Of a stretch of 64,000 nucleotides of DNA, positions 2,858 to 12,457 are shown in pieces (position 1 is the stretch's first letter; each line of letters opens with the position of its first letter). This stretch comes from Escherichia coli (lineage in GTDB: Bacteria; Pseudomonadota; Gammaproteobacteria; Enterobacterales; Enterobacteriaceae). Location: assembly GCF_044324875.1 (NCBI RefSeq), contig NZ_CP172185.1; one strand, 5' to 3'. Under the pieces are notes generated by a model. The model was not told where the DNA came from, did no database searches, and worked only from the letters and a program-made list of their open reading frames with translations. The position numbers and the translations under genes are program-made.

Positions 2858-3601
2858 GTGAAAAAGTTACTGGCACTCACTGCGGTAGCTGCGCTTACCG
2901 GTACGTTTTCAACGCTGACGCTGGCAGATGCGGATAAAACCGGTTTCTATATCACGGGTAAGGCTGGTGCATCTGTTATCACTCAGGATAATCAGCGCTT
3001 TAGTCAGGACTTTGGGGATGATGTTTATAAGTATAAAGGCGGTGACAAGAGCGATACGGTTTTTGGTGCTGGCCTTGCGGTGGGATACGACTTTTATCAG
3101 CACTACAATGTCCCTGTACGCACGGAAGTTGAATTCTATGGTCGCGGCTCTGCGAATTCCCGCTATCCACTGGATACATGGGAGTCCCCATTTGGAGATA
3201 GTGGCCGGGAAGACACACAAAACAGGCTCAGCGTGAATACCCTGATGGTGAACACGTATTATGATTTCCGAAACAGCAGTGCTTTCACTCCGTGGGTATC
3301 AGCCGGACTGGGCTATGCGCGGGTACATCATAAGGCAACATACACCGATACCTACTGGAATAAATCAGGCGAAGTAAGTACTTCTGCATTACATTACTCG
3401 GGATATGATAACAATTTCGCATGGAGCCTTGGTGTTGGCGTGAAATATGATGTCACTCCGGATTTCAGTCTTGACCTTGCTTATCGCTATCTTGATGCAG
3501 GTGATTCAACCCTGACGTATAAAGACGGGCAGGATACATATAAATCCTCTGTTGATGTCAGAAGTAACGAATTTACGTTAGGCGCTACATACAGCTTCTG
3601 A
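2858..3601 (+). CDS. tia: Tia/Hek/Hra1-family outer-membrane beta-barrel protein (invasin/adhesin type)
   Basis: Signal peptide, FYITGKAGASV, RTEVEFY, SVNTLMVNTYYDFRNSSAFTPWVSAGLGYARVHHK, NFAWSLGVGVKYDVTPD, LDLAYRYLDAGDS, C-terminal ...TYSF; adjacent to a leoCBA-like operon as in the ETEC tia island (recalled). Confidence 0.6.
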   Translation: MKKLLALTAVAALTGTFSTLTLADADKTGFYITGKAGASVITQDNQRFSQDFGDDVYKYKGGDKSDTVFGAGLAVGYDFYQHYNVPVRTEVEFYGRGSANSRYPLDTWESPFGDSGREDTQNRLSVNTLMVNTYYDFRNSSAFTPWVSAGLGYARVHHKATYTDTYWNKSGEVSTSALHYSGYDNNFAWSLGVGVKYDVTPDFSLDLAYRYLDAGDSTLTYKDGQDTYKSSVDVRSNEFTLGATYSF

Positions 3602-3612
3602 ATGTAATATCT

Positions 3613-3651
3613 GACTACACGTTGTTAAATTCAAAATCGCAGCGTGTAGTC
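3613..3651 (+). terminator. Long-loop hairpin downstream of tia-like gene
   Basis: gactacacg ... cgtgtagtc inverted repeat (9-bp stem, 21-nt loop) followed by tgatttgatagttt. Confidence 0.3.
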
Positions 3652-3687
3652 TGATTTGATAGTTTAATACAACAGACAGGTACCTTC

Positions 3688-3882
3688 ATGGCACTTCCTC
3701 AGCCCCCGGTTACGTTCATTTGTACCAGATGTAAGTGGCGTAAAACCATTGTCCATATGGGATGTACTACTGGATTTTCACATTGTCCTCAATGTGGCAG
3801 TAATTCGGTAAAACGGGAAAATGCTGGTGTTGTTACTTCATTATTTTCCTCCCTTTCATCCGTTTTCATGAAAAAATCCTGA
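3688..3882 (+). CDS. Small zinc-ribbon-like protein (CxxC...CxxC), hypothetical
   Basis: 64-aa ORF with CTRC ... CPQC pairs; directly upstream of the leo-like operon. Confidence 0.3.
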   Translation: MALPQPPVTFICTRCKWRKTIVHMGCTTGFSHCPQCGSNSVKRENAGVVTSLFSSLSSVFMKKS

Positions 3883-3983
3883 CTGCTGTTATTTTTATAT
3901 TGCTGGTACTTTATTAAAATCCGCTAAGGTTTTGTATCAGAAATAATTCTCAGACAGTAATCGTCATTCCATTCCGGGGATTT

Positions 3984-4652
3984 ATGAATACGAAAGAACA
4001 ATTCAACCAGCTTTATGATGATATCAGTAATCAGATACGCCAGACTGTGAATGATATTTCGCAACTGAGTGTTGAGAATGAAAAAGGACAGATACATCTC
4101 AATAAAATACGGGAACAACTACAGGCATTACATGATAACTTCAATCATAAGCTGGATTACCTGAAGGAGCATGCCGAATGGGACAGGTTTACTGTCGCTT
4201 TTTTTGGCGAAACGAATGCTGGTAAAAGTACCATAATTGAGTCGTTGAGAATATTATTTGATGAAACAACCCGTCGTGAATTCCTGAATAATAATCAAAA
4301 AGATTTACAAAAGTCAGAACAGGAGTTAAGTAAAAACCTGGAACAGTTAAGCCATGATTTGGAATGCGTTTATGGTGATATTGTCGATAAATTCCGTGAC
4401 ATTAGTTTGTCTGTCATGCAGTTACGACAAATTGTTGCTGATGAGAGCGCATTACGTATAAAAATGGAAGAAGATGAAAAGAATGCCCGTCTCCTTACAG
4501 AACAGAATGAAAGTCAGGCCCGGCTGAATATTTTACAGCAACAGACGAATACCAAAGCACGTTTCAGATTATTTGTGACGGCAATTATCAGCATGATTGT
4601 GGGAGGATGTGGATTTCTGTTGCTGAATCAAGTATTCGGGAGCTTACAATGA
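3984..4652 (+). CDS. leoC: LeoC-like: P-loop (G1) fragment of a split dynamin-like protein with C-terminal TM segment
   Basis: GETNAGKST Walker A/G1, coiled-coil-like middle, hydrophobic C-terminus; stop TGA overlaps the next ATG (ATGA at 4649-4652). Confidence 0.55.
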   Translation: MNTKEQFNQLYDDISNQIRQTVNDISQLSVENEKGQIHLNKIREQLQALHDNFNHKLDYLKEHAEWDRFTVAFFGETNAGKSTIIESLRILFDETTRREFLNNNQKDLQKSEQELSKNLEQLSHDLECVYGDIVDKFRDISLSVMQLRQIVADESALRIKMEEDEKNARLLTEQNESQARLNILQQQTNTKARFRLFVTAIISMIVGGCGFLLLNQVFGSLQ

Positions 4653-6373
4653 GTAATATTCCATGTTCTGCAGATAATAATCCGGAAAAATATCCGGAAA
4701 CTGTCTGTCAGGAATATAATTGCACAGGCGGCGCGGATGATATCAGGTTCTTTTTTAAAAAAAGTCTGGAGCGTACTGTTAGTTCCGTTATCCGGACCGA
4801 AACATTAAGAAATACTGCAAAACGTGTGGATGGCCTGATCATCGGAACCGGTGAGGCTGATTTTACCAAAGACAACACACACTATAATTTACGCATTGAC
4901 GATAAAGATTTTCAGTTGATTGATGTTCCGGGTATTGAAGGTAATGAAACCTGCTACACACATCTTGTTAAAAAAGCCATTGCGCAGGCTCATCTGGTGG
5001 TTTACGTCAACGGTACCAATAAAAAGCCTGAAACAAGCACCGCAAAGAAGATCAAATCTTATCTGGAATATGGCACTCAGGTTTATCCGTTGATCAATGT
5101 ACGCGGTTATTCTGATGACTATGAATTTGAGGAAGATCGTGTCGCTCTCGAACAACAGGGTAGGGGCGGTGAGGCTTTATGCCAGACTGTTGGGGTGCTC
5201 GCTTCCGTATTAGGGGCGGATGTGTTGCTGAATGGGAACTGTGTACAGGGATTACTGGCATTTTCAGCGTTGGCTTATGACGACAATACACACAGAACAA
5301 CCATTCATCCGTTACGTGATCGAAATCTGGCGGTATATCAACGTGGTTTTTTTAATGTATTTCCTTCCCGTCAGGAAATGCTGACATTCAGCCAGATTGA
5401 TGCCGTCGCTCAGACAATTAAAAATAAGGTCGCAACGTTCCGTGAGGATATTATCGAAAGTAATAAATATAAAGTTCGTGAGACTCTGGATCAATACTTA
5501 CAGGTACTTGAAGAGCAATTAAACAGCCATCACTGCTTTTTACAAAAGACAATACCGGAATTTGAAAAATGCCGGACTGCGTTCAAAAATGCGACTGGTG
5601 AATTTGAACGCCGTATTGCGAACAGTCGTCGCAATCGCTGGAATAGCCTTTTTAATGACCTAGGGAATGCCTGTGATGGTATTGTCGAACATAATTTTGG
5701 TGACAGCAGTGCTATTTCCACACTGATACGTAATGAGTATGAAAAGCGCCGTAAAATGATGGAACAAATGATGCAGGAGGATACTGAAGAGAGTGTAAAG
5801 GTATTACAAGAGCAAACTCTTCAGGCGGTAAATCGTTTGCTGGAAGATATTCACAATGTGGAACTTCAACACCCCCTCAGTTTTGCTAACAGCCGCAGCA
5901 TCGAGTTTAGTGGAGAGATGGTACCTGGTTACGAGCTGGGGATGGCTGATTTCAGTTCAATGGTTTTAAAAATTGGCAGCTATGCAATGTCAGGCAGTGC
6001 AATTGGCAGCATCTTTCCCGTTATTGGTACGCTTGTTGGCTCTGCGGTTGGTGCGTTGCTTGGCATAATAATGACTATTGCGGGTATTTTTACCAGTAAA
6101 GCGTCAAAAATCCGCAAAGCACAAGGAAAAATACGCAACAAGCTGGAGGAAGTGCGGGATAAATCTCTCTGCAGCATACCTGATGAAACCCGCCTCCTGG
6201 TTGCAGCTATTGAAAAAGAACTTGAGTGTGGCCTGCTGCAAAAACTCAACGATATGCAGGTGGATCTGCAACAGCCTGTTGCCATATTCGAAACTCAAAT
6301 CAGTCGAATCACAACATTAAAGAAACAATTGGAGAAAATGCCTTATGGAACAATTCAAACAGTTCAGTATTGA
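4649..6373 (+). CDS. leoB: LeoB-like: remainder of the split dynamin-like protein
   Basis: Translationally coupled to the upstream gene; DVPGI (G3-like) motif; long helical regions and hydrophobic stretch near C-terminus. Confidence 0.55.
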   Translation: MSNIPCSADNNPEKYPETVCQEYNCTGGADDIRFFFKKSLERTVSSVIRTETLRNTAKRVDGLIIGTGEADFTKDNTHYNLRIDDKDFQLIDVPGIEGNETCYTHLVKKAIAQAHLVVYVNGTNKKPETSTAKKIKSYLEYGTQVYPLINVRGYSDDYEFEEDRVALEQQGRGGEALCQTVGVLASVLGADVLLNGNCVQGLLAFSALAYDDNTHRTTIHPLRDRNLAVYQRGFFNVFPSRQEMLTFSQIDAVAQTIKNKVATFREDIIESNKYKVRETLDQYLQVLEEQLNSHHCFLQKTIPEFEKCRTAFKNATGEFERRIANSRRNRWNSLFNDLGNACDGIVEHNFGDSSAISTLIRNEYEKRRKMMEQMMQEDTEESVKVLQEQTLQAVNRLLEDIHNVELQHPLSFANSRSIEFSGEMVPGYELGMADFSSMVLKIGSYAMSGSAIGSIFPVIGTLVGSAVGALLGIIMTIAGIFTSKASKIRKAQGKIRNKLEEVRDKSLCSIPDETRLLVAAIEKELECGLLQKLNDMQVDLQQPVAIFETQISRITTLKKQLEKMPYGTIQTVQY

Positions 6374-8078
6374 AAAACTGGCTGCGATTAATTCGCTATC
6401 ACAGTTGCGCGGAATGTTAGAAATGTTGGGAGATTTGGGGATAGACATCAGTGACGATTTACAAAAAATTACTTATGCAATTAATTCCATCGAATCTGAT
6501 GTTCTGCGTATTGCTTTGTTGGGGGCGTTTTCTGATGGCAAAACCAGCGTTATCGCTGCATGGATGGGTAAGATAATGGATGATATGAATATTTCCATGG
6601 ATGAGTCCTCTGATCGGTTGAGTATTTACAAACCGGAAGGTCTGCCAGACCAGTGTGAAATTGTTGATACACCCGGGCTGTTTGGTGATAAAGAGCGTGA
6701 GGTGGACGGGAAACAGGTGATGTATGAAGACCTGACCAAACGCTATATATCTGAAGCTCATCTGATTTTATACGTGGTTGATGCCACTAACCCGCTAAAG
6801 GAGAGCCACAACGACATCGTAAAATGGGTATTGCGCGATTTGAATAAACTCTCTTCAACCATTTTTGTTATCAATAAAATGGATGAAGTGACTGATCTGA
6901 CAGAGCAGGCGCTGTTTGACGAGCAGGCAGCAATTAAAAAGGCGAATCTTAAAGGTAAATTGCAGCGTGCAGCTGCTCTTACCGCTCAGGAGTGTGATCA
7001 GCTAAATATCGTCTGCATTGCTTCAAACCCAAACGGTCGTGGCTTAACGTACTGGTTTGATAAACCAGAACATTATGAAAGTCGTTCGCGCATTAACGAT
7101 CTTAAAAATGCTGCCACCGACATACTGAAAACTAATGTGCCAGAGGTATTGTTAGCGAAAACAGGTATGGACGTGGTGAAAGATATTGTCATTCAGCGTG
7201 CCACCCAGGCAAGCAGACAGTTCGATGAACTGAATCTGTTTGTTGAGAAGAATGACGAGGACATGTGTCGTTTTCAGAACGACATTAAGCAAAGTCGCAT
7301 TGAGGTTAAACGGCTGGCCGGAGAGTTATTTGAAGAGCTGAACCTGATGGAAAAAAAGCTGATGAGTCAACTGCGTTCACTCGATCTGGACGATATCCGC
7401 CCGTTTATGGACGATGAGCTGGGATATACAGAAGATGGGGTTGGCTTTAAGCTTCATCTGCGCATTGAGCAGTCAGTTCATCGTTTTTTCGAACAGTCGA
7501 AAGCGGTCTCGCAACGCTTATCTGATGATATCACTTGTCAGTTGAGCTCCAGCGAGAGCTTTCTAAGTGGCTTAGGCGAAGGCGCATTTCGTTCTTTAGG
7601 CGGGACCTTTAAGGGAGTGTCGAAAATTAGTCCGGCGACGCTCAAAACGACTATTTTGACCGCACGCGATACGATTGGCAAACTAACGGGATATACCTAT
7701 AAATTTAAACCCTGGGAGGCCACGAAACTGGCCGGAAGCATTTCCAAATGGGCTGGTCCTGTGGGTGCAGTGTTTACGATTGGTTCTGATCTATGGGATG
7801 CCTATAAAGCACACGAGCGGGAGCAGGAGCTGAAAAAAGTAAAAGAATCGCTGGCGAAAATCATTAAAGAGCAGTTTGAATATATCTATGACGTACTGAG
7901 TTCTGATGAGAAAATATTCGCCTTTTTTGCACCGCAGATCCAAAAAATGGAGCAGGTTGTTACTGAGCTGGCAGAGAAAAGCCAGGCTATTCGCGACAAC
8001 CGGCAGAAACTGAGCATTATTCAGACGCAGCTTGCACAACTAATGGTTCCAGCCACAGAAAACCATACTGTCAGATAG
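6345..8078 (+). CDS. leoA: Bacterial dynamin-like GTPase, LeoA-like
   Basis: G1 GAFSDGKTS, G3 DTPGL, G4 NKMD in order; 577 aa; overlaps the end of the upstream gene (operon). Confidence 0.75.
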   Translation: MEQFKQFSIEKLAAINSLSQLRGMLEMLGDLGIDISDDLQKITYAINSIESDVLRIALLGAFSDGKTSVIAAWMGKIMDDMNISMDESSDRLSIYKPEGLPDQCEIVDTPGLFGDKEREVDGKQVMYEDLTKRYISEAHLILYVVDATNPLKESHNDIVKWVLRDLNKLSSTIFVINKMDEVTDLTEQALFDEQAAIKKANLKGKLQRAAALTAQECDQLNIVCIASNPNGRGLTYWFDKPEHYESRSRINDLKNAATDILKTNVPEVLLAKTGMDVVKDIVIQRATQASRQFDELNLFVEKNDEDMCRFQNDIKQSRIEVKRLAGELFEELNLMEKKLMSQLRSLDLDDIRPFMDDELGYTEDGVGFKLHLRIEQSVHRFFEQSKAVSQRLSDDITCQLSSSESFLSGLGEGAFRSLGGTFKGVSKISPATLKTTILTARDTIGKLTGYTYKFKPWEATKLAGSISKWAGPVGAVFTIGSDLWDAYKAHEREQELKKVKESLAKIIKEQFEYIYDVLSSDEKIFAFFAPQIQKMEQVVTELAEKSQAIRDNRQKLSIIQTQLAQLMVPATENHTVR

Positions 8079-8190: not shown

Positions 8191-8400
8191 ATGAGGGATA
8201 AATCAGTGAGATTATTGTTAAAGGGACTGACTGGAATGGTTATGGCCTGGTTGGTGATCTATTTTGGTATGAAATTATTTTTTCTCACAGATCAGATTCA
8301 TCCGGCATTAAGAACTCTTGTCATGCTGGGGATGTTATTTATGTTGATAATGATTCCCTGTGTAATATGTGGTTCTTTTTTACGAAAGAGGCAGAAATGA
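8191..8400 (+). CDS. Small membrane protein (two predicted TM helices), hypothetical
   Basis: 69-aa ORF, hydrophobic segments, basic C-terminus. Confidence 0.3.
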   Translation: MRDKSVRLLLKGLTGMVMAWLVIYFGMKLFFLTDQIHPALRTLVMLGMLFMLIMIPCVICGSFLRKRQK

Positions 8401-8485: not shown

Positions 8486-8971
8486 TTGATGAACATAAAA
8501 AATATTTTTCTGTTTCTTTTTTTTAGTTTATTAGCAGGTAATGCCTTTGCTGCTGCAACAGTGATGGGGTATTGTGAACTGAAGAATGGAAAAACGCTTT
8601 CTGTATGGGCTGGTGATAATGGAAGTTATAATTATACTTTATATGGCAAAAGTGGGACGACAGAGTTACAGCTAAAAGAAGGATTGTTTGGCGTCAGAGC
8701 TTTTCACTATTATCATTCCATACGTGATGGAGTGGGAGCGTTCAAGTACCTCCGGTTTAATAAAGGTGAATATGATTATGTTGTCATGTCGTATGAGGAT
8801 GGTCGTTCCCCCTATTTTGATGGTGTGATAGTATTCAGAAATGGAAACCGAATTGCTCGTCTCGAATGTGCCCATCCATTTACAGGAGCATTTTCTGTTG
8901 AAGAACTGGATGCAGGACATAATCAGGACAGTGAAGATATGGCTGAATATATTATGAGTAATTTTACCTGA
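8486..8971 (+). CDS. Secreted protein of unknown function
   Basis: N-terminal signal peptide (FLFLFFSLLAGNAFAAA); no recognised motif. Confidence 0.5.
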   Translation: MMNIKNIFLFLFFSLLAGNAFAAATVMGYCELKNGKTLSVWAGDNGSYNYTLYGKSGTTELQLKEGLFGVRAFHYYHSIRDGVGAFKYLRFNKGEYDYVVMSYEDGRSPYFDGVIVFRNGNRIARLECAHPFTGAFSVEELDAGHNQDSEDMAEYIMSNFT

Positions 8972-9105: not shown

Positions 9106-9870
9106 TCAATCCAGTGTGATTTCTGCAGCCAGTTCTTCTGAGTCTGCATTTGCTATTTTGCTACGTAAGACTGCAACATAAATTACGGCAGGTATTGTAA
9201 CCCTGTAGGCTGTACCACCAACATCCACAAGAGTCCAGATTGCGGTAATCGCCCATCCTACAGGACCAGTTAATACAGCCATTGTTCTGGTCAAAATAGT
9301 ATTACCGGCAAAACTTAATCCTCTTCCGATTAAAGCTTTTAAAATAGCATTAGCCATAATTAATGTAAGCTGATACGATTTGAATCCACCTGCTTTAAAT
9401 ATGAACTGGAATGTTGAAACAAGTGCTTTCGGTGTAAGCCCATCGAGTTTTTTTACACCAATCTCTCGCGCAAATTCTTTCAGTTCATCATCACTCATTT
9501 TTTCAAATGCATCATTGAGTATTTTCAACATGAGGCATTGTTCTATATTTTCAATTGTGCTATTTTTGTTATAGTTAACTTTTAGTTTATCACAAACATC
9601 GGTAAGCACCTCTCTGTATTTAACACCTCGTCCTCCTCTGAGAAGTGTCGCAAAAGTATTACCGCCAAAGCATTGAATTTCAGCTGCAATTTCTCGCCAG
9701 TACTTACTGTGCTGAGGATTATATCTTTTGTAATATTCATTTCCAGAAAGTTCTTCAGTAAAGCGTTTCTTTCCGTCCTTATCATATATTAAGCAATCAA
9801 CCAAATCATTCAGTTCTGCATCAGAACATTTTGATAAAAACTCAAGGTCTTCATCATAACGATATGCCAT
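9106..9870 (-). CDS. YaaW/UPF0174-family protein
   Basis: C-terminal ...GPVGWAITAIWTLVDVGGTAYRVTIPAVIYVAVLR... recalled as characteristic of the YaaW family. Confidence 0.55.
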   Translation of the reverse strand: MAYRYDEDLEFLSKCSDAELNDLVDCLIYDKDGKKRFTEELSGNEYYKRYNPQHSKYWREIAAEIQCFGGNTFATLLRGGRGVKYREVLTDVCDKLKVNYNKNSTIENIEQCLMLKILNDAFEKMSDDELKEFAREIGVKKLDGLTPKALVSTFQFIFKAGGFKSYQLTLIMANAILKALIGRGLSFAGNTILTRTMAVLTGPVGWAITAIWTLVDVGGTAYRVTIPAVIYVAVLRSKIANADSEELAAEITLD

Positions 9871-11051
9871 AAAATTTCCTATTTAAAGGTCAGGTGTTAA
9901 TGCTGACATGCGATTTTGAGACGTATAAATAGTCCTTGTCTATTATATTCTTATCAATTTTATTTTCAATGTTTTTATCTTCTTTTTATACACTCTTAAA
10001 AAGAACCGATTTTATTACCTGAGCATGTAATGTAAAAGTATATGTGTGATGATTAAAGTTTTTATCCTTATTTTTCCTGTAAGGACGAGCTTTCCGTGGT
10101 TGCTGTTCTCGTATGTATGCGGGGTATTACTTTCACTAATGGTTAAAATTCTTTCCTTCCGGTTAAAGCATTCATGTGTTTGTATTTTTCTTTGCTATTT
10201 GTTTTTTAGTACAGAATTTAATTAGTGTGGTTGTGATTTTTGTTGATATCACCACGCGCATTTTATATGAAATAGCCACATAACTTTCAACAAAATATAA
10301 AAATAAAATTATGCTATAGTAAACAACAGATTTTTATGTTTATGAAAGATGACCACTTTTTTAATTTGACTGAATTTTTTAAGATGCTTTTGAGTTGTGA
10401 AATATATTTTTCTTTATTGCTTTTTGGAATGTTGACGGGGCGTAGTTATGATTAATATAACAGAAGTTTCAGGAACGCTTTTTTCTTTTAAATGCCTGCG
10501 CATGACTTGTTCAATAATGTGTTTTCATCATATTTTTTTGGCATCAATACAATAATTAAAGATATAACGTTAAAATATTATTTATTGGCTTTTCCTGATG
10601 GAGTAAAAACAAATGTAACAACTAACTGCATGATAAATAAGTAGAATGGTCAGTATCATGTATATTATTTGGGTATAAGTGGTATTTGTAAAGAATCAGT
10701 TGTGTTACTCCGGAATATATCTCTTTGAGAGAGCAGAAGTGAAACAGATATTCTCTTGAAAGTATTGCATTATCGTTACCGTTTTTATATCAGAGGCTGA
10801 AAATACGTATTTTTATAAACAGGGTGGAGGCATTTTTGTGTTATGTATGGATTTTCAAACCGGGTGAATCATCCAGACAGGTAATAATATAATAAGAAAT
10901 GTTGCTGCCAGGCTAAAACAGGAACGTGTACTTCTGTGAAAATGTTGATGCGAAGCTACCATTATTTGGGGTAGGGTATCTTCGCTCATCAGATGATATT
11001 GAATATGGTCGCCTGAAATCAGAAATTAAAAAATACAAATGGTAGTTAACT

Positions 11052-11078
11052 CCCCACCAACCGCTGTGGTTGGTGGGG
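11052..11078 (-). terminator. Perfect 11-bp-stem hairpin immediately downstream of int, followed by a G8 tract
   Basis: ccccaccaacc-gctgt-ggttggtgggg, then gggggggg; T-run only 15 nt further on the minus strand, so not a canonical intrinsic terminator. Confidence 0.3.
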
Positions 11079-11087
11079 GGGGATGGC

Positions 11088-12281
11088 TTATTTCGTTTGT
11101 ACGTTTTTCTCCATAAGTGAATCAATGTAATCAGCGTACCACTGCATCATTTCACGACGTCCATCGAGATACAGGGCATGATTATAGGTACCCCTGATGG
11201 AGTTTTTATCCACATGCGCTAACTGCATTTCAATCCAGGCAGAATTAAAGCCCTGTTCGTGCAGAATTGTGCTCATTGTGTGACGAAAACCATGGCCGGT
11301 TGCTCTGCCATCGTAACCGATGCGTTTTAGTACCATATTGATGCTGGCTTCACTCATCGGTTTGTTAACATCGCAACGTCCGGGGAATATAAGGCGATAC
11401 TGCCCGGTAAAACGATGCAATTCCTGCAGCAGTGAAATGGCCTGGCGTGACAGAGGAACAATATGATGCCTGCGCATTTTCATTCGCTCTTCAGGGATAT
11501 GCCAGAGTGCGTTGTCAGAATCAATTTCTGACCATTCGGCCAGCCGCAATTCAATCGTTCTGAGTCCGGTCAGCATCAGCAGGCTCGTCGCCATACGGGT
11601 GACAGGACTGCCATGATAGTCAGCGAGCTTCCGGAGAAAAACAGGAAGTTCATCCGCTCTCAGATGGGGAAAATGTGCGGTTTTTGGTGCCGCCAGCGTA
11701 CTGGTCAGTTCTGATGCAGGATTGACAGTGGCACGTCCTGTGGCAATGGCATAACGGAAAATCTGATTGCAGTATTGACGGACCTTGCGTAATTTTTCCA
11801 GAGAGCCACGTTTTTCAATACGACGCAAAATCTCCAGCATTTCCAGCGGGAGGATATCAGTCACGCTCCGGTTGCTCAGATACGGGAAAACGTCTTTATC
11901 CAGCGCTTCCAGTACGCTTCTGGCGTAACTGTCAGACCATGATAAAGATTTATGATGATGCCATTCCATTGCGAGAGCATGAAAGGTGTTGGTGACAGAG
12001 ATTTTCTGAGAGAGTTTTTCCCTTCGCTTCTTTTCACCGGGATCTCCACCCTCGGATATAATTTTTCGTGCATCGTCGCGTCTGGTTCTGGCTTCAGCAA
12101 GGGAGACGTCAGGATAGACGCCGAGGGACAGTTTTTTCTCCTTTCCTGCTGTTCTGTACTTAAGGCGCCAGTAGCGTGCTCCCGTGGTTTTTACCAGCAG
12201 ATATAAACCACGTTCATCAGAAAGTTTATAATCTTTGTCTTTAGGTCTTGCCGTTTCGACCTGTCTGGCTGTAAGTGCCAT
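11088..12281 (-). CDS. int: P4-type tyrosine integrase
   Basis: MALTARQVETARPKDKDYKLSDERGLYLLV...RYWRLKYR...KLSLGVYP N-terminal domain typical of P4/CP4-57 IntA integrases; RBS-supported ATG at 12281; adjacent to tRNA-derived att. Confidence 0.9.
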   Translation of the reverse strand: MALTARQVETARPKDKDYKLSDERGLYLLVKTTGARYWRLKYRTAGKEKKLSLGVYPDVSLAEARTRRDDARKIISEGGDPGEKKRREKLSQKISVTNTFHALAMEWHHHKSLSWSDSYARSVLEALDKDVFPYLSNRSVTDILPLEMLEILRRIEKRGSLEKLRKVRQYCNQIFRYAIATGRATVNPASELTSTLAAPKTAHFPHLRADELPVFLRKLADYHGSPVTRMATSLLMLTGLRTIELRLAEWSEIDSDNALWHIPEERMKMRRHHIVPLSRQAISLLQELHRFTGQYRLIFPGRCDVNKPMSEASINMVLKRIGYDGRATGHGFRHTMSTILHEQGFNSAWIEMQLAHVDKNSIRGTYNHALYLDGRREMMQWYADYIDSLMEKNVQTK

Positions 12282-12457
12282 ATGGGGGCCCCTTAAACTG
12301 ACCGAACACAATGAGCCCCCAAATGTGCCCCCATTTAATGCTTGATTCAGGGGGTGTTCAATAGAATTCGGTGGAGTTCAAAATGTCCGGAACGATTATA
12401 AATCAGTGATTATACATGAATTTCGTGGAGTGCGGGGGATGTGTGTAGAAGTGAAGG

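Follow-up and report, generated by a model that had tools for sequence, protein, structure and literature searches.

A diverged tia-leoCBA locus of Escherichia coli and the position at which its dynamin-like LeoBC protein is divided

Genes of the locus and their identity

The 64,000-nucleotide stretch of Escherichia coli DNA considered here (contig NZ_CP172185.1; the whole stretch is referred to as the window) carries four open reading frames (ORFs) on the same strand between positions 2858 and 8078, which an ORF check places in the order tia-like gene, leoC, leoB and leoA. An initial annotation, made from the sequence alone, had proposed that a Tia-like invasin gene stands here next to homologues of leoC, leoB and leoA and that the P-loop and the G3 motif of one dynamin-like GTPase domain lie on separate polypeptides. 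Among complete genomes, the closest match is the chromosome of E. coli strain CM2 (NZ_CP158308; a chicken isolate from Henan), with at least 99.9% identity over the region examined. The genes, and the features that lie between them, are as follows.

2858..3601, + strand: tia-like gene for an 8-stranded outer-membrane β-barrel protein, 247 aa
3613..3651, + strand: 13-bp stem-loop, terminator-like, directly after the tia stop codon (RNA fold −23.1 kcal/mol; z = −4.4 against shuffles)
3688..3882, + strand: unannotated ORF upstream of leoC for a 64-aa CxxC...CxxC zinc-ribbon protein; candidate accessory or regulatory gene
3984..4652, + strand: leoC, 222 aa; predicted neck helices, β1, P-loop (G1), α1, long outgoing helix and hydrophobic tail anchor
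4649..6373, + strand: leoB, 574 aa; predicted returning helix, switch 1, G3 motif DVPG, degenerate G4 motif NVRG, helical trunk and Gly-rich membrane paddle
6345..8078, + strand: leoA, 577 aa; soluble dynamin-like GTPase with canonical G1, G3 and G4 motifs

Our reference for the canonical locus is the tia-leoC-leoB-leoA cluster of E. coli strain JNU, to which the Tia, LeoC, LeoB and LeoA proteins of the window are 77, 54, 82 and 91% identical, respectively. The PADLOC models for LeoC (PDLC03843, 4.4e-71), LeoB (PDLC03842, 1.7e-218) and LeoA (PDLC03840, 5.3e-280) are all matched, and the LeoBC model (PDLC03841) is matched by both LeoC and LeoB. LeoA scores 614 bits on NCBIfam NF041922 (cut-off 325) and 1161 bits against PDB 4AUR. 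No NCBIfam model recognises LeoB or LeoC, which gave weak generic GTPase matches there; a PDB sequence search with LeoB alone returned nothing meaningful, and a LeoB-type profile gave a weak match to BDLP (E = 0.0016). The Prokaryotic Genome Annotation Pipeline (PGAP) names only leoA, as a "toxin secretory dynamin-like GTPase," and calls leoC and leoB "hypothetical." The four homologies proposed in the initial annotation are borne out, and, judged by sequence similarity, the window carries a divergent allele of the tia-leoCBA cluster already known from E. coli.

The motifs that had been read from the sequence are likewise all present at the expected positions. A G1 P-loop of the form GxxxxGK(S/T) is found in both LeoC (GETNAGKST, residues 75–83) and LeoA (GAFSDGKTS, 60–68), and a G3 motif of the form DxxG in both LeoB (DVPG, 92–95, invariant) and LeoA (DTPG, 108–111). 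The P-loop and the DxxG motif of the first GTPase domain are thus indeed on separate polypeptides. Pfam Dynamin_N is matched in two parts, with LeoC residues 71–88 aligned to model positions 1–18 and LeoB residues 66–140 to positions 81–155 of 168; by this alignment the two matches are complementary halves of one domain. LeoC has a hydrophobic tail at residues 193–220 (Kyte-Doolittle 19-residue maximum, 2.43), and the paddle of LeoB reaches a hydropathy of 2.21. Sequence analysis found no signal peptide in LeoA, LeoB or LeoC and no hydrophobic segment in LeoA.

The initial annotation had described LeoB as a 588-residue protein translationally coupled to LeoC through an ATGA. The coupling is real, but a length of 588 residues needs an upstream ATG at 4607, and the coupled start gives 574. 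We take LeoB as a protein of 574 residues because the coupled ATG at 4649 is both the PGAP start and the place where homologues begin.

Where the LeoBC protein is divided

The division of this protein is not new. Michie et al. 2014 (PMC4159319) resequenced the leoC/leoB junction of enterotoxigenic E. coli (ETEC) H10407 and described LeoC and LeoB as the two parts of one dynamin-like protein: LeoC has the P-loop and a 22-residue membrane anchor, and LeoB has the DxxG motif and a region that binds membranes. In their proposal, this "LeoBC" heterodimerises with LeoA, the structure of which is PDB 4AUR. Millman et al. 2022 also described the first gene of the pair as divided in two in E. coli H10407. 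The window shares with the H10407 locus the gene order tia-leoC-leoB-leoA, the split, a LeoA that is 91% identical and a leoB/leoA overlap of 29 nt, which is the same in the canonical locus. The leoC/leoB junction, however, differs. In the window, the ATG of leoB (4649–4651) and the TGA of leoC (4650–4652) form a 4-nt ATGA overlap with a GGGAG Shine-Dalgarno sequence upstream, and the two genes are in different frames, whereas at the canonical E. coli junction they are in the same frame and are separated by a stop codon and 6 nt, the 9-nt gap of the ETEC type. Two different junction structures preserve one split.

Relatives were collected with a LeoB-type alignment in a scan of one genome per species, which returned at least 80 loci. 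The split is kept in 34 complete leoC/leoB pairs, 32 in addition to those of the window and the canonical locus. The set spans gamma-, beta- and alpha-proteobacteria and includes one Treponema, and in every pair a P-loop protein is encoded directly upstream of the LeoB-like gene. The LeoC-like proteins of these pairs range from 146 to 311 aa, and at the C-terminus of each a basic stretch precedes a hydrophobic, Gly-rich tail of some 20 residues; the intergenic gap ranges from −4 to +57 nt. The initial annotation had allowed that leoC and leoB might be a single gene broken near position 4650 by a frameshift or a sequencing error. Unsplit homologues do exist, and the two ORFs of the window do overlap by 4 nt in different frames. 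The unsplit relatives are, however, at most about 33% identical, and the 34 independent pairs each have their own start codon, their own junction and the conserved tail anchor. The exact Leo proteins of the window recur on about 126–150 public E. coli contigs, and the H10407 junction is the one that was resequenced. We therefore reject the broken-gene (pseudogene) explanation as extremely improbable, and the comparison of these pairs indicates that the split is genuine and ancient. One 732-aa "fused" homologue at 42% identity (P0125) was set aside, as its middle section resembles an out-of-frame translation.

The allele in the window differs from the canonical one mostly in the regions that flank the cut. 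The G1 region of LeoC (residues 63–95) is 94% identical to its canonical counterpart and LeoB is 83–92% identical from residue 58 on, whereas identity falls to 41% in LeoC 96–190, with a 22-column gap, to 39% in the LeoC tail, to 27% in LeoB 1–28 and to 45% in LeoB 29–57. On this pattern of identities, the hairpin, the tail and the leader form a fast-evolving module, and it is for this reason that naming by BLAST rules fails for this allele. The window LeoC is 17 aa longer than ETEC LeoC and keeps a 22-residue stretch that is missing from the canonical protein. Since 779 LeoC homologues are almost all 219–225 aa long and most LeoC proteins of Enterobacterales have about 220 aa, the 222-aa LeoC of the window is of the usual length, and the 205-aa canonical ETEC LeoC is the shorter one. 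Canonical leoC itself was matched in about 66 of 5426 complete E. coli genomes.

The unsplit relatives locate the cut. At 36 loci, the sequences FFGETNAGKSTxIExxR and DGxIIGxGxxDFT, which the split pairs carry on LeoC and LeoB, are found in one chain, 25 to 332 residues apart. The spacing is 25–26 residues in Bacteroidales and in a metagenome-assembled genome of Bacilli, 169–173 residues in many members of Pseudomonas, Haemophilus, Serratia marcescens, Acidovorax and Luteibacter, 227 residues in Providencia and 290–332 residues in Helicobacter; the other unsplit relatives fall between 34 and 143 residues. The insertion between the two motifs is helical, and at the middle of the 169-residue type there is an amphipathic motif rich in Trp and Phe (e.g. 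KWWQRFISLFIP) that aligns with the hydrophobic tail of LeoC in an alignment of 42 sequences. Because the insertion is helical and its midpoint motif falls at the position of the LeoC tail, the gene is cut at what the sequences indicate to be the tip of a helical-hairpin insertion between α1 and switch 1, and many unsplit relatives keep this insertion intact. A helical hairpin inserted at this point, a G domain on two polypeptides and a G4 position that reads NVRG rather than (N/T)KxD set the protein of the window apart from Mitofusin/Fzo1, BDLP, IniA and Cj-DLP1/2, which fuse or tether membranes.

The same 42 sequences bear on the placement of switch 1. The invariant columns run from G75 to R89 in LeoC, after which LeoC has none; in LeoB they comprise D61, G62, I64, G66, G68, D71 and T73, followed by D92–E100 (D283...T295 and D314–E322 in alignment numbering). 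T73 of LeoB lies within DGLIIGTGEADFT, four residues before the first strand of the first β-hairpin in the structure model described below. In GTPases, the G2 threonine sits just before the first strand of that β-hairpin. The G2/switch 1 threonine is therefore found on LeoB rather than on LeoC: T73 is invariant and at the G2 position, and LeoC offers no invariant column after R89. This placement, which is drawn from the alignment and the model and not from a solved structure, would be contrary to that of Michie et al. 2014, who assigned switch 1 to LeoC. At the G4 position, LeoB has NVRG (residues 150–153). N150 is invariant, but none of the LeoBC relatives examined, split or unsplit, has an Asp at +3, and the (N/T)KxD motif is found only in LeoA (NKMD, 177–180).

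For structure prediction, LeoC was directly concatenated to LeoB as an artificial single chain, and AlphaFold2 was given an alignment of 13 concatenated LeoC+LeoB sequences (the query and 12 pairs) and 29 natural unsplit relatives. The model has a mean predicted local distance difference test (pLDDT) score of 76.7 and a predicted template modelling score of 0.61, with pLDDT values of 85–97 in the G domain. Strand β1 (residues 69–75) and helix α1 (81–91) of LeoC are predicted at a pLDDT of about 95. They are followed by a long LeoC helix at residues 95–163, and a confident LeoB helix at residues 29–56 runs into switch 1. The predicted fold is dynamin/mitofusin-like, with a GTPase fold and a helical-bundle neck.

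Neighbouring genes and genomic setting

Four further features lie downstream of leoA.

8191..8400, + strand: 69-aa membrane ORF; 57% identity tblastn match at the same position in the canonical locus (L002)
8486–8971, + strand: 161-aa ORF with an N-terminal signal-peptide-like hydrophobic stretch; no family match
9106..9870, − strand: JukA-family (DUF3944) gene
11088..12311, − strand: tyrosine integrase (PGAP annotation) bordering the low-GC block; context only

Neither the 8191–8400 nor the 8486–8971 ORF has a PADLOC match, and the former also has no NCBIfam match. The guanine-plus-cytosine (GC) fraction drops to 0.31–0.45 between about 2500 and 11000, the block that carries the leo locus, and past the integrase, from about 12560 on the + strand and divergent from it, lie the ParA, dnaB-PI and ParB genes of a SPI-7/PAPI-1-type integrative element. 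A scan of the whole 64-kb window found no tRNA gene that might mark the attachment site of the island. Comparison with plasmids gave no match, and a promoter scan found no excess over shuffled sequence (13 found, 14.4 expected). Between the JukA-family gene and the integrase, at 9870–11088, is a 1.2-kb stretch with a GC fraction of about 0.31, which has no ORF of at least 60 aa in 9870–10913.

The JukA-family gene stands 1 kb downstream of leoA on the opposite strand, and its assignment is clear (PADLOC JukA, 1.1e-68; phrog_13238, 2.7e-119). JukA was described as the sensor of a "jumbo-phage killer" system, some JukA genes of which stand alone (Li et al. 2022 preprint). No JukB was found nearby, either by PADLOC on the neighbouring ORFs or by an ORF check of 9870–10913, so the two-gene JukAB arrangement is not seen here; the gene is also antiparallel to leoCBA, and any coupling to leoCBA would be hypothetical. 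Elsewhere, JukA homologues adjoin Leo-type or other dynamin-like pairs at three loci of our survey (L056, where the gene is directly upstream on the same strand, L069 and L090). Both Eleos, the defence system discussed below, and Juk have been linked to jumbo phages.

The zinc-ribbon ORF at 3688–3882 fits no Pfam, NCBIfam or PADLOC family, and a database look-up showed that no annotation has ever called a gene with precisely this sequence. The canonical E. coli locus has a homologue in the corresponding position, and in Pseudomonas, Paraburkholderia, Achromobacter, Sphingorhabdus and Shewanella ANA-3 homologues immediately precede leoC or immediately follow leoA. In this family, C12, C15, W17, C33 and P34 are invariant; the AlphaFold2 model of the protein has a pLDDT of 64, which makes the fold suggestive rather than established. 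We had considered the protein as a dedicated Leo subunit and downgraded that idea: a hidden Markov model of the family places a member no farther than 6 kb away at only 20 of 76 Leo loci, 13 of the 40 split ones and 7 of the 36 unsplit ones, and half of the reverse look-ups led to unrelated defence genes. Among ten family members taken from the protein database, five are within 6 kb of dynamin-like genes, two of these at bona fide split Leo loci, and the other five adjoin BrxR/WYL regulators, type I restriction-modification genes, helicases or Tn7 cargo. Because its neighbours include both Leo and other defence genes, the ORF is better viewed as a defence-island element that is enriched near Leo than as an obligate subunit. 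At other loci the zinc-ribbon gene often has a membrane ORF of about 106 aa behind it; the window lacks this ORF. An unannotated paralogue of the zinc-ribbon ORF also occurs on other E. coli islands, between a 117-aa hypothetical gene and an EcsC-family gene (L002, 18765–18974; L083, 9627–9848).

Over all of its 247 aa, the Tia-like protein shares 77% identity with a protein that PGAP names Tia, the comparison for which the initial annotation had called, and it has the expected signal-like sequence (MKKLLALTAVAALTG...A) and C-terminal aromatic β-signal (...TYSF). Its allele is present in 15 complete E. coli genomes, among them that of strain 135, in which the same upstream dolP and yebF paralogues accompany it and there are no leo genes. 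Among 88 loci examined, tia was found only in those of E. coli. The stem-loop that follows the gene was missed by a simple terminator scan, its loop being 13 nt long. The E. coli-only linkage, the strong hairpin of its own and the occurrence of the allele without leo in strain 135 lead us to place tia outside the Leo system; on this comparative evidence, it is an independent neighbour. In the window, the paralogues of dolP (+ strand) and yebF (− strand) that directly precede the tia-like gene are island-borne and occupy 1555–2542; PGAP flags the island copy of yebF with an internal stop, and the 117-aa ORF is intact in the window.

Possible functions of the locus

Two studies have brought pairs of this kind into the catalogues of anti-phage systems. 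Millman et al. 2022 showed that LeoBC+LeoA of Bacillus vietnamensis protects Bacillus subtilis from the jumbo phages AR9 and PBS1, that a P-loop mutation in either protein abolishes protection and that 60% of such operons adjoin known defence systems; Cury et al. 2022 named the LeoA+LeoBC system Eleos, for which PADLOC has the models PDLC03839–03843. The locus in the window resembles Eleos in having a LeoA-family gene with split LeoC and LeoB genes directly upstream on the same strand, intact P-loops in both proteins of the pair, strong matches to the PADLOC models and a setting like that of a defence island, with the JukA-family gene 1 kb downstream, the low-GC block, the integrase and genes of a SPI-7-type integrative and conjugative element. 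Anti-phage defence (Dynamins/Eleos), possibly against jumbo phages, is therefore better supported as the role of these genes than dedicated virulence. As a whole, the explanation that we favour, with a probability of roughly 0.7, is that the locus is a diverged tia-leoCBA cluster in which a split LeoBC acts with LeoA against phage and tia is independent. A literature search found no mechanistic paper on Eleos after 2022, and one article (PMC12922286) was set aside as it concerns a different, RdcA-like dynamin family.

On our reading, LeoC supplies the neck helices, β1, the P-loop and α1, and then a long helix ending in the tail-anchor membrane segment, and LeoB supplies the returning helix, both switch 1 and switch 2 (DVPG), what remains of the G domain, the trunk and the Gly-rich paddle. 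The two chains would probably combine into a single nucleotide-binding domain, anchored in the membrane, that forms a heterodimer with soluble LeoA through the G domains, and the LeoBC–LeoA pair would then remodel the inner membrane in a nucleotide-dependent manner. A more speculative extension, which we think unlikely to hold in full, would make the zinc-ribbon ORF an unrecognised accessory or regulatory part of Leo/Eleos and other defence islands, the split hairpin (LeoC 96–222 and LeoB 1–57) a membrane-anchoring or specificity module and the JukA-family protein a sensor that works with the dynamin pair against jumbo phages.

Several points weigh against the defence explanation and the mechanism drawn from it. 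The protection from phage was shown for the unsplit Bacillus vietnamensis pair, which is compact and has neither the long insertion nor the tail anchor, and not for the split E. coli type. The G domain that the two chains may re-form was modelled from an artificial single-chain concatenation in which the LeoC tail is of low confidence, the LeoB N-terminus is disordered and pLDDT is below 50 for residues 198–249. GTP binding by LeoBC cannot be assumed, because LeoB has no guanine-specifying Asp at G4, and Michie et al. 2014 could not purify LeoB or LeoC and found that LeoA alone bound no nucleotide. The same authors reported that knockouts of leoA or leoB in ETEC H10407 cut vesicle-associated secretion by about 50%. 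This vesicle and secretion phenotype remains compatible with the defence role or is an alternative to it, and a virulence role thus has direct, if modest, support in E. coli.

The initial annotation had drawn the same conclusion, regarding the island as the carrier of the Tia and Leo virulence module of ETEC; the gene identities stand, but the functional framing is dated, with tia a bystander and defence better supported. As a virulence module, Tia would mediate adhesion and invasion, and LeoABC would drive the formation of outer-membrane vesicles that release toxin (heat-labile toxin, LT) and periplasmic cargo. The decreases of about 50% in the release of OmpA and of green fluorescent protein exported by the Tat pathway (Tat-GFP) in leoA, leoB and leoAB mutants and the periplasmic LeoA foci (Michie et al. 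2014) would fit such a module, as would the PGAP name of LeoA and the adjacency of tia and leoCBA in the E. coli loci examined. That adjacency is confined to E. coli, however; other Leo loci have no tia, and tia has its terminator-like hairpin and an allele that also occurs without leo. The chicken isolate that is the closest complete genome shows no sign of an ETEC toxin in its annotated flanks, the system is widespread in non-pathogens and often beside defence genes (Millman et al. 2022), and the Leo proteins have no signal peptide. We consider a dedicated virulence module improbable, although the two roles are not mutually exclusive.

A general repair of membrane stress, as for B. subtilis DynA, would have the Leo proteins seal or stabilise the inner membrane with no phage-specific sensing. 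The dynamin/mitofusin-like fold would suit this role, as would the LeoC tail and the LeoB paddle, both predicted to bind membranes, and DynA delays phage lysis through membrane integrity (cited in Millman et al. 2022). The patchy distribution of the genes on mobile islands, to judge from the small fraction of complete E. coli genomes with canonical leoC, argues against it, as do their co-localisation with defence genes and the protection by the tested homologue against two jumbo phages only (Millman et al. 2022). We regard general repair as distinctly less probable than the virulence module, and anti-phage defence remains our preferred account.

Overall, the main finding is an ordinary one in this field. 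LeoABC and its split were published in 2014, and catalogues of defence systems have included the system from 2022 on, so that the split, which the initial annotation called mechanistically unusual, is real but already published (Michie et al. 2014; Millman et al. 2022). What this analysis adds is the position of the cut, the placement of switch 1 on LeoB, the missing G4 Asp, the zinc-ribbon ORF and the JukA-family neighbour. There is also a gap in annotation: the allele is on about 130 public E. coli contigs with LeoC and LeoB labelled "hypothetical," "DUF1269" or "YtxH," and tools that depend on product names will miss this Leo system. The position of the cut points to informative residues (K81 of LeoC; T73 and D92 of LeoB) and to the design of a functional fusion; a LeoB-LeoC fusion was not obtained in sufficient quantities by Michie et al. 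2014. The absence of the G4 Asp throughout the sampled LeoBC family calls into question the GTP specificity assumed for the LeoBC half of the pair, and the zinc-ribbon ORF and the JukA-family neighbour are leads on how Eleos systems may be regulated or triggered.

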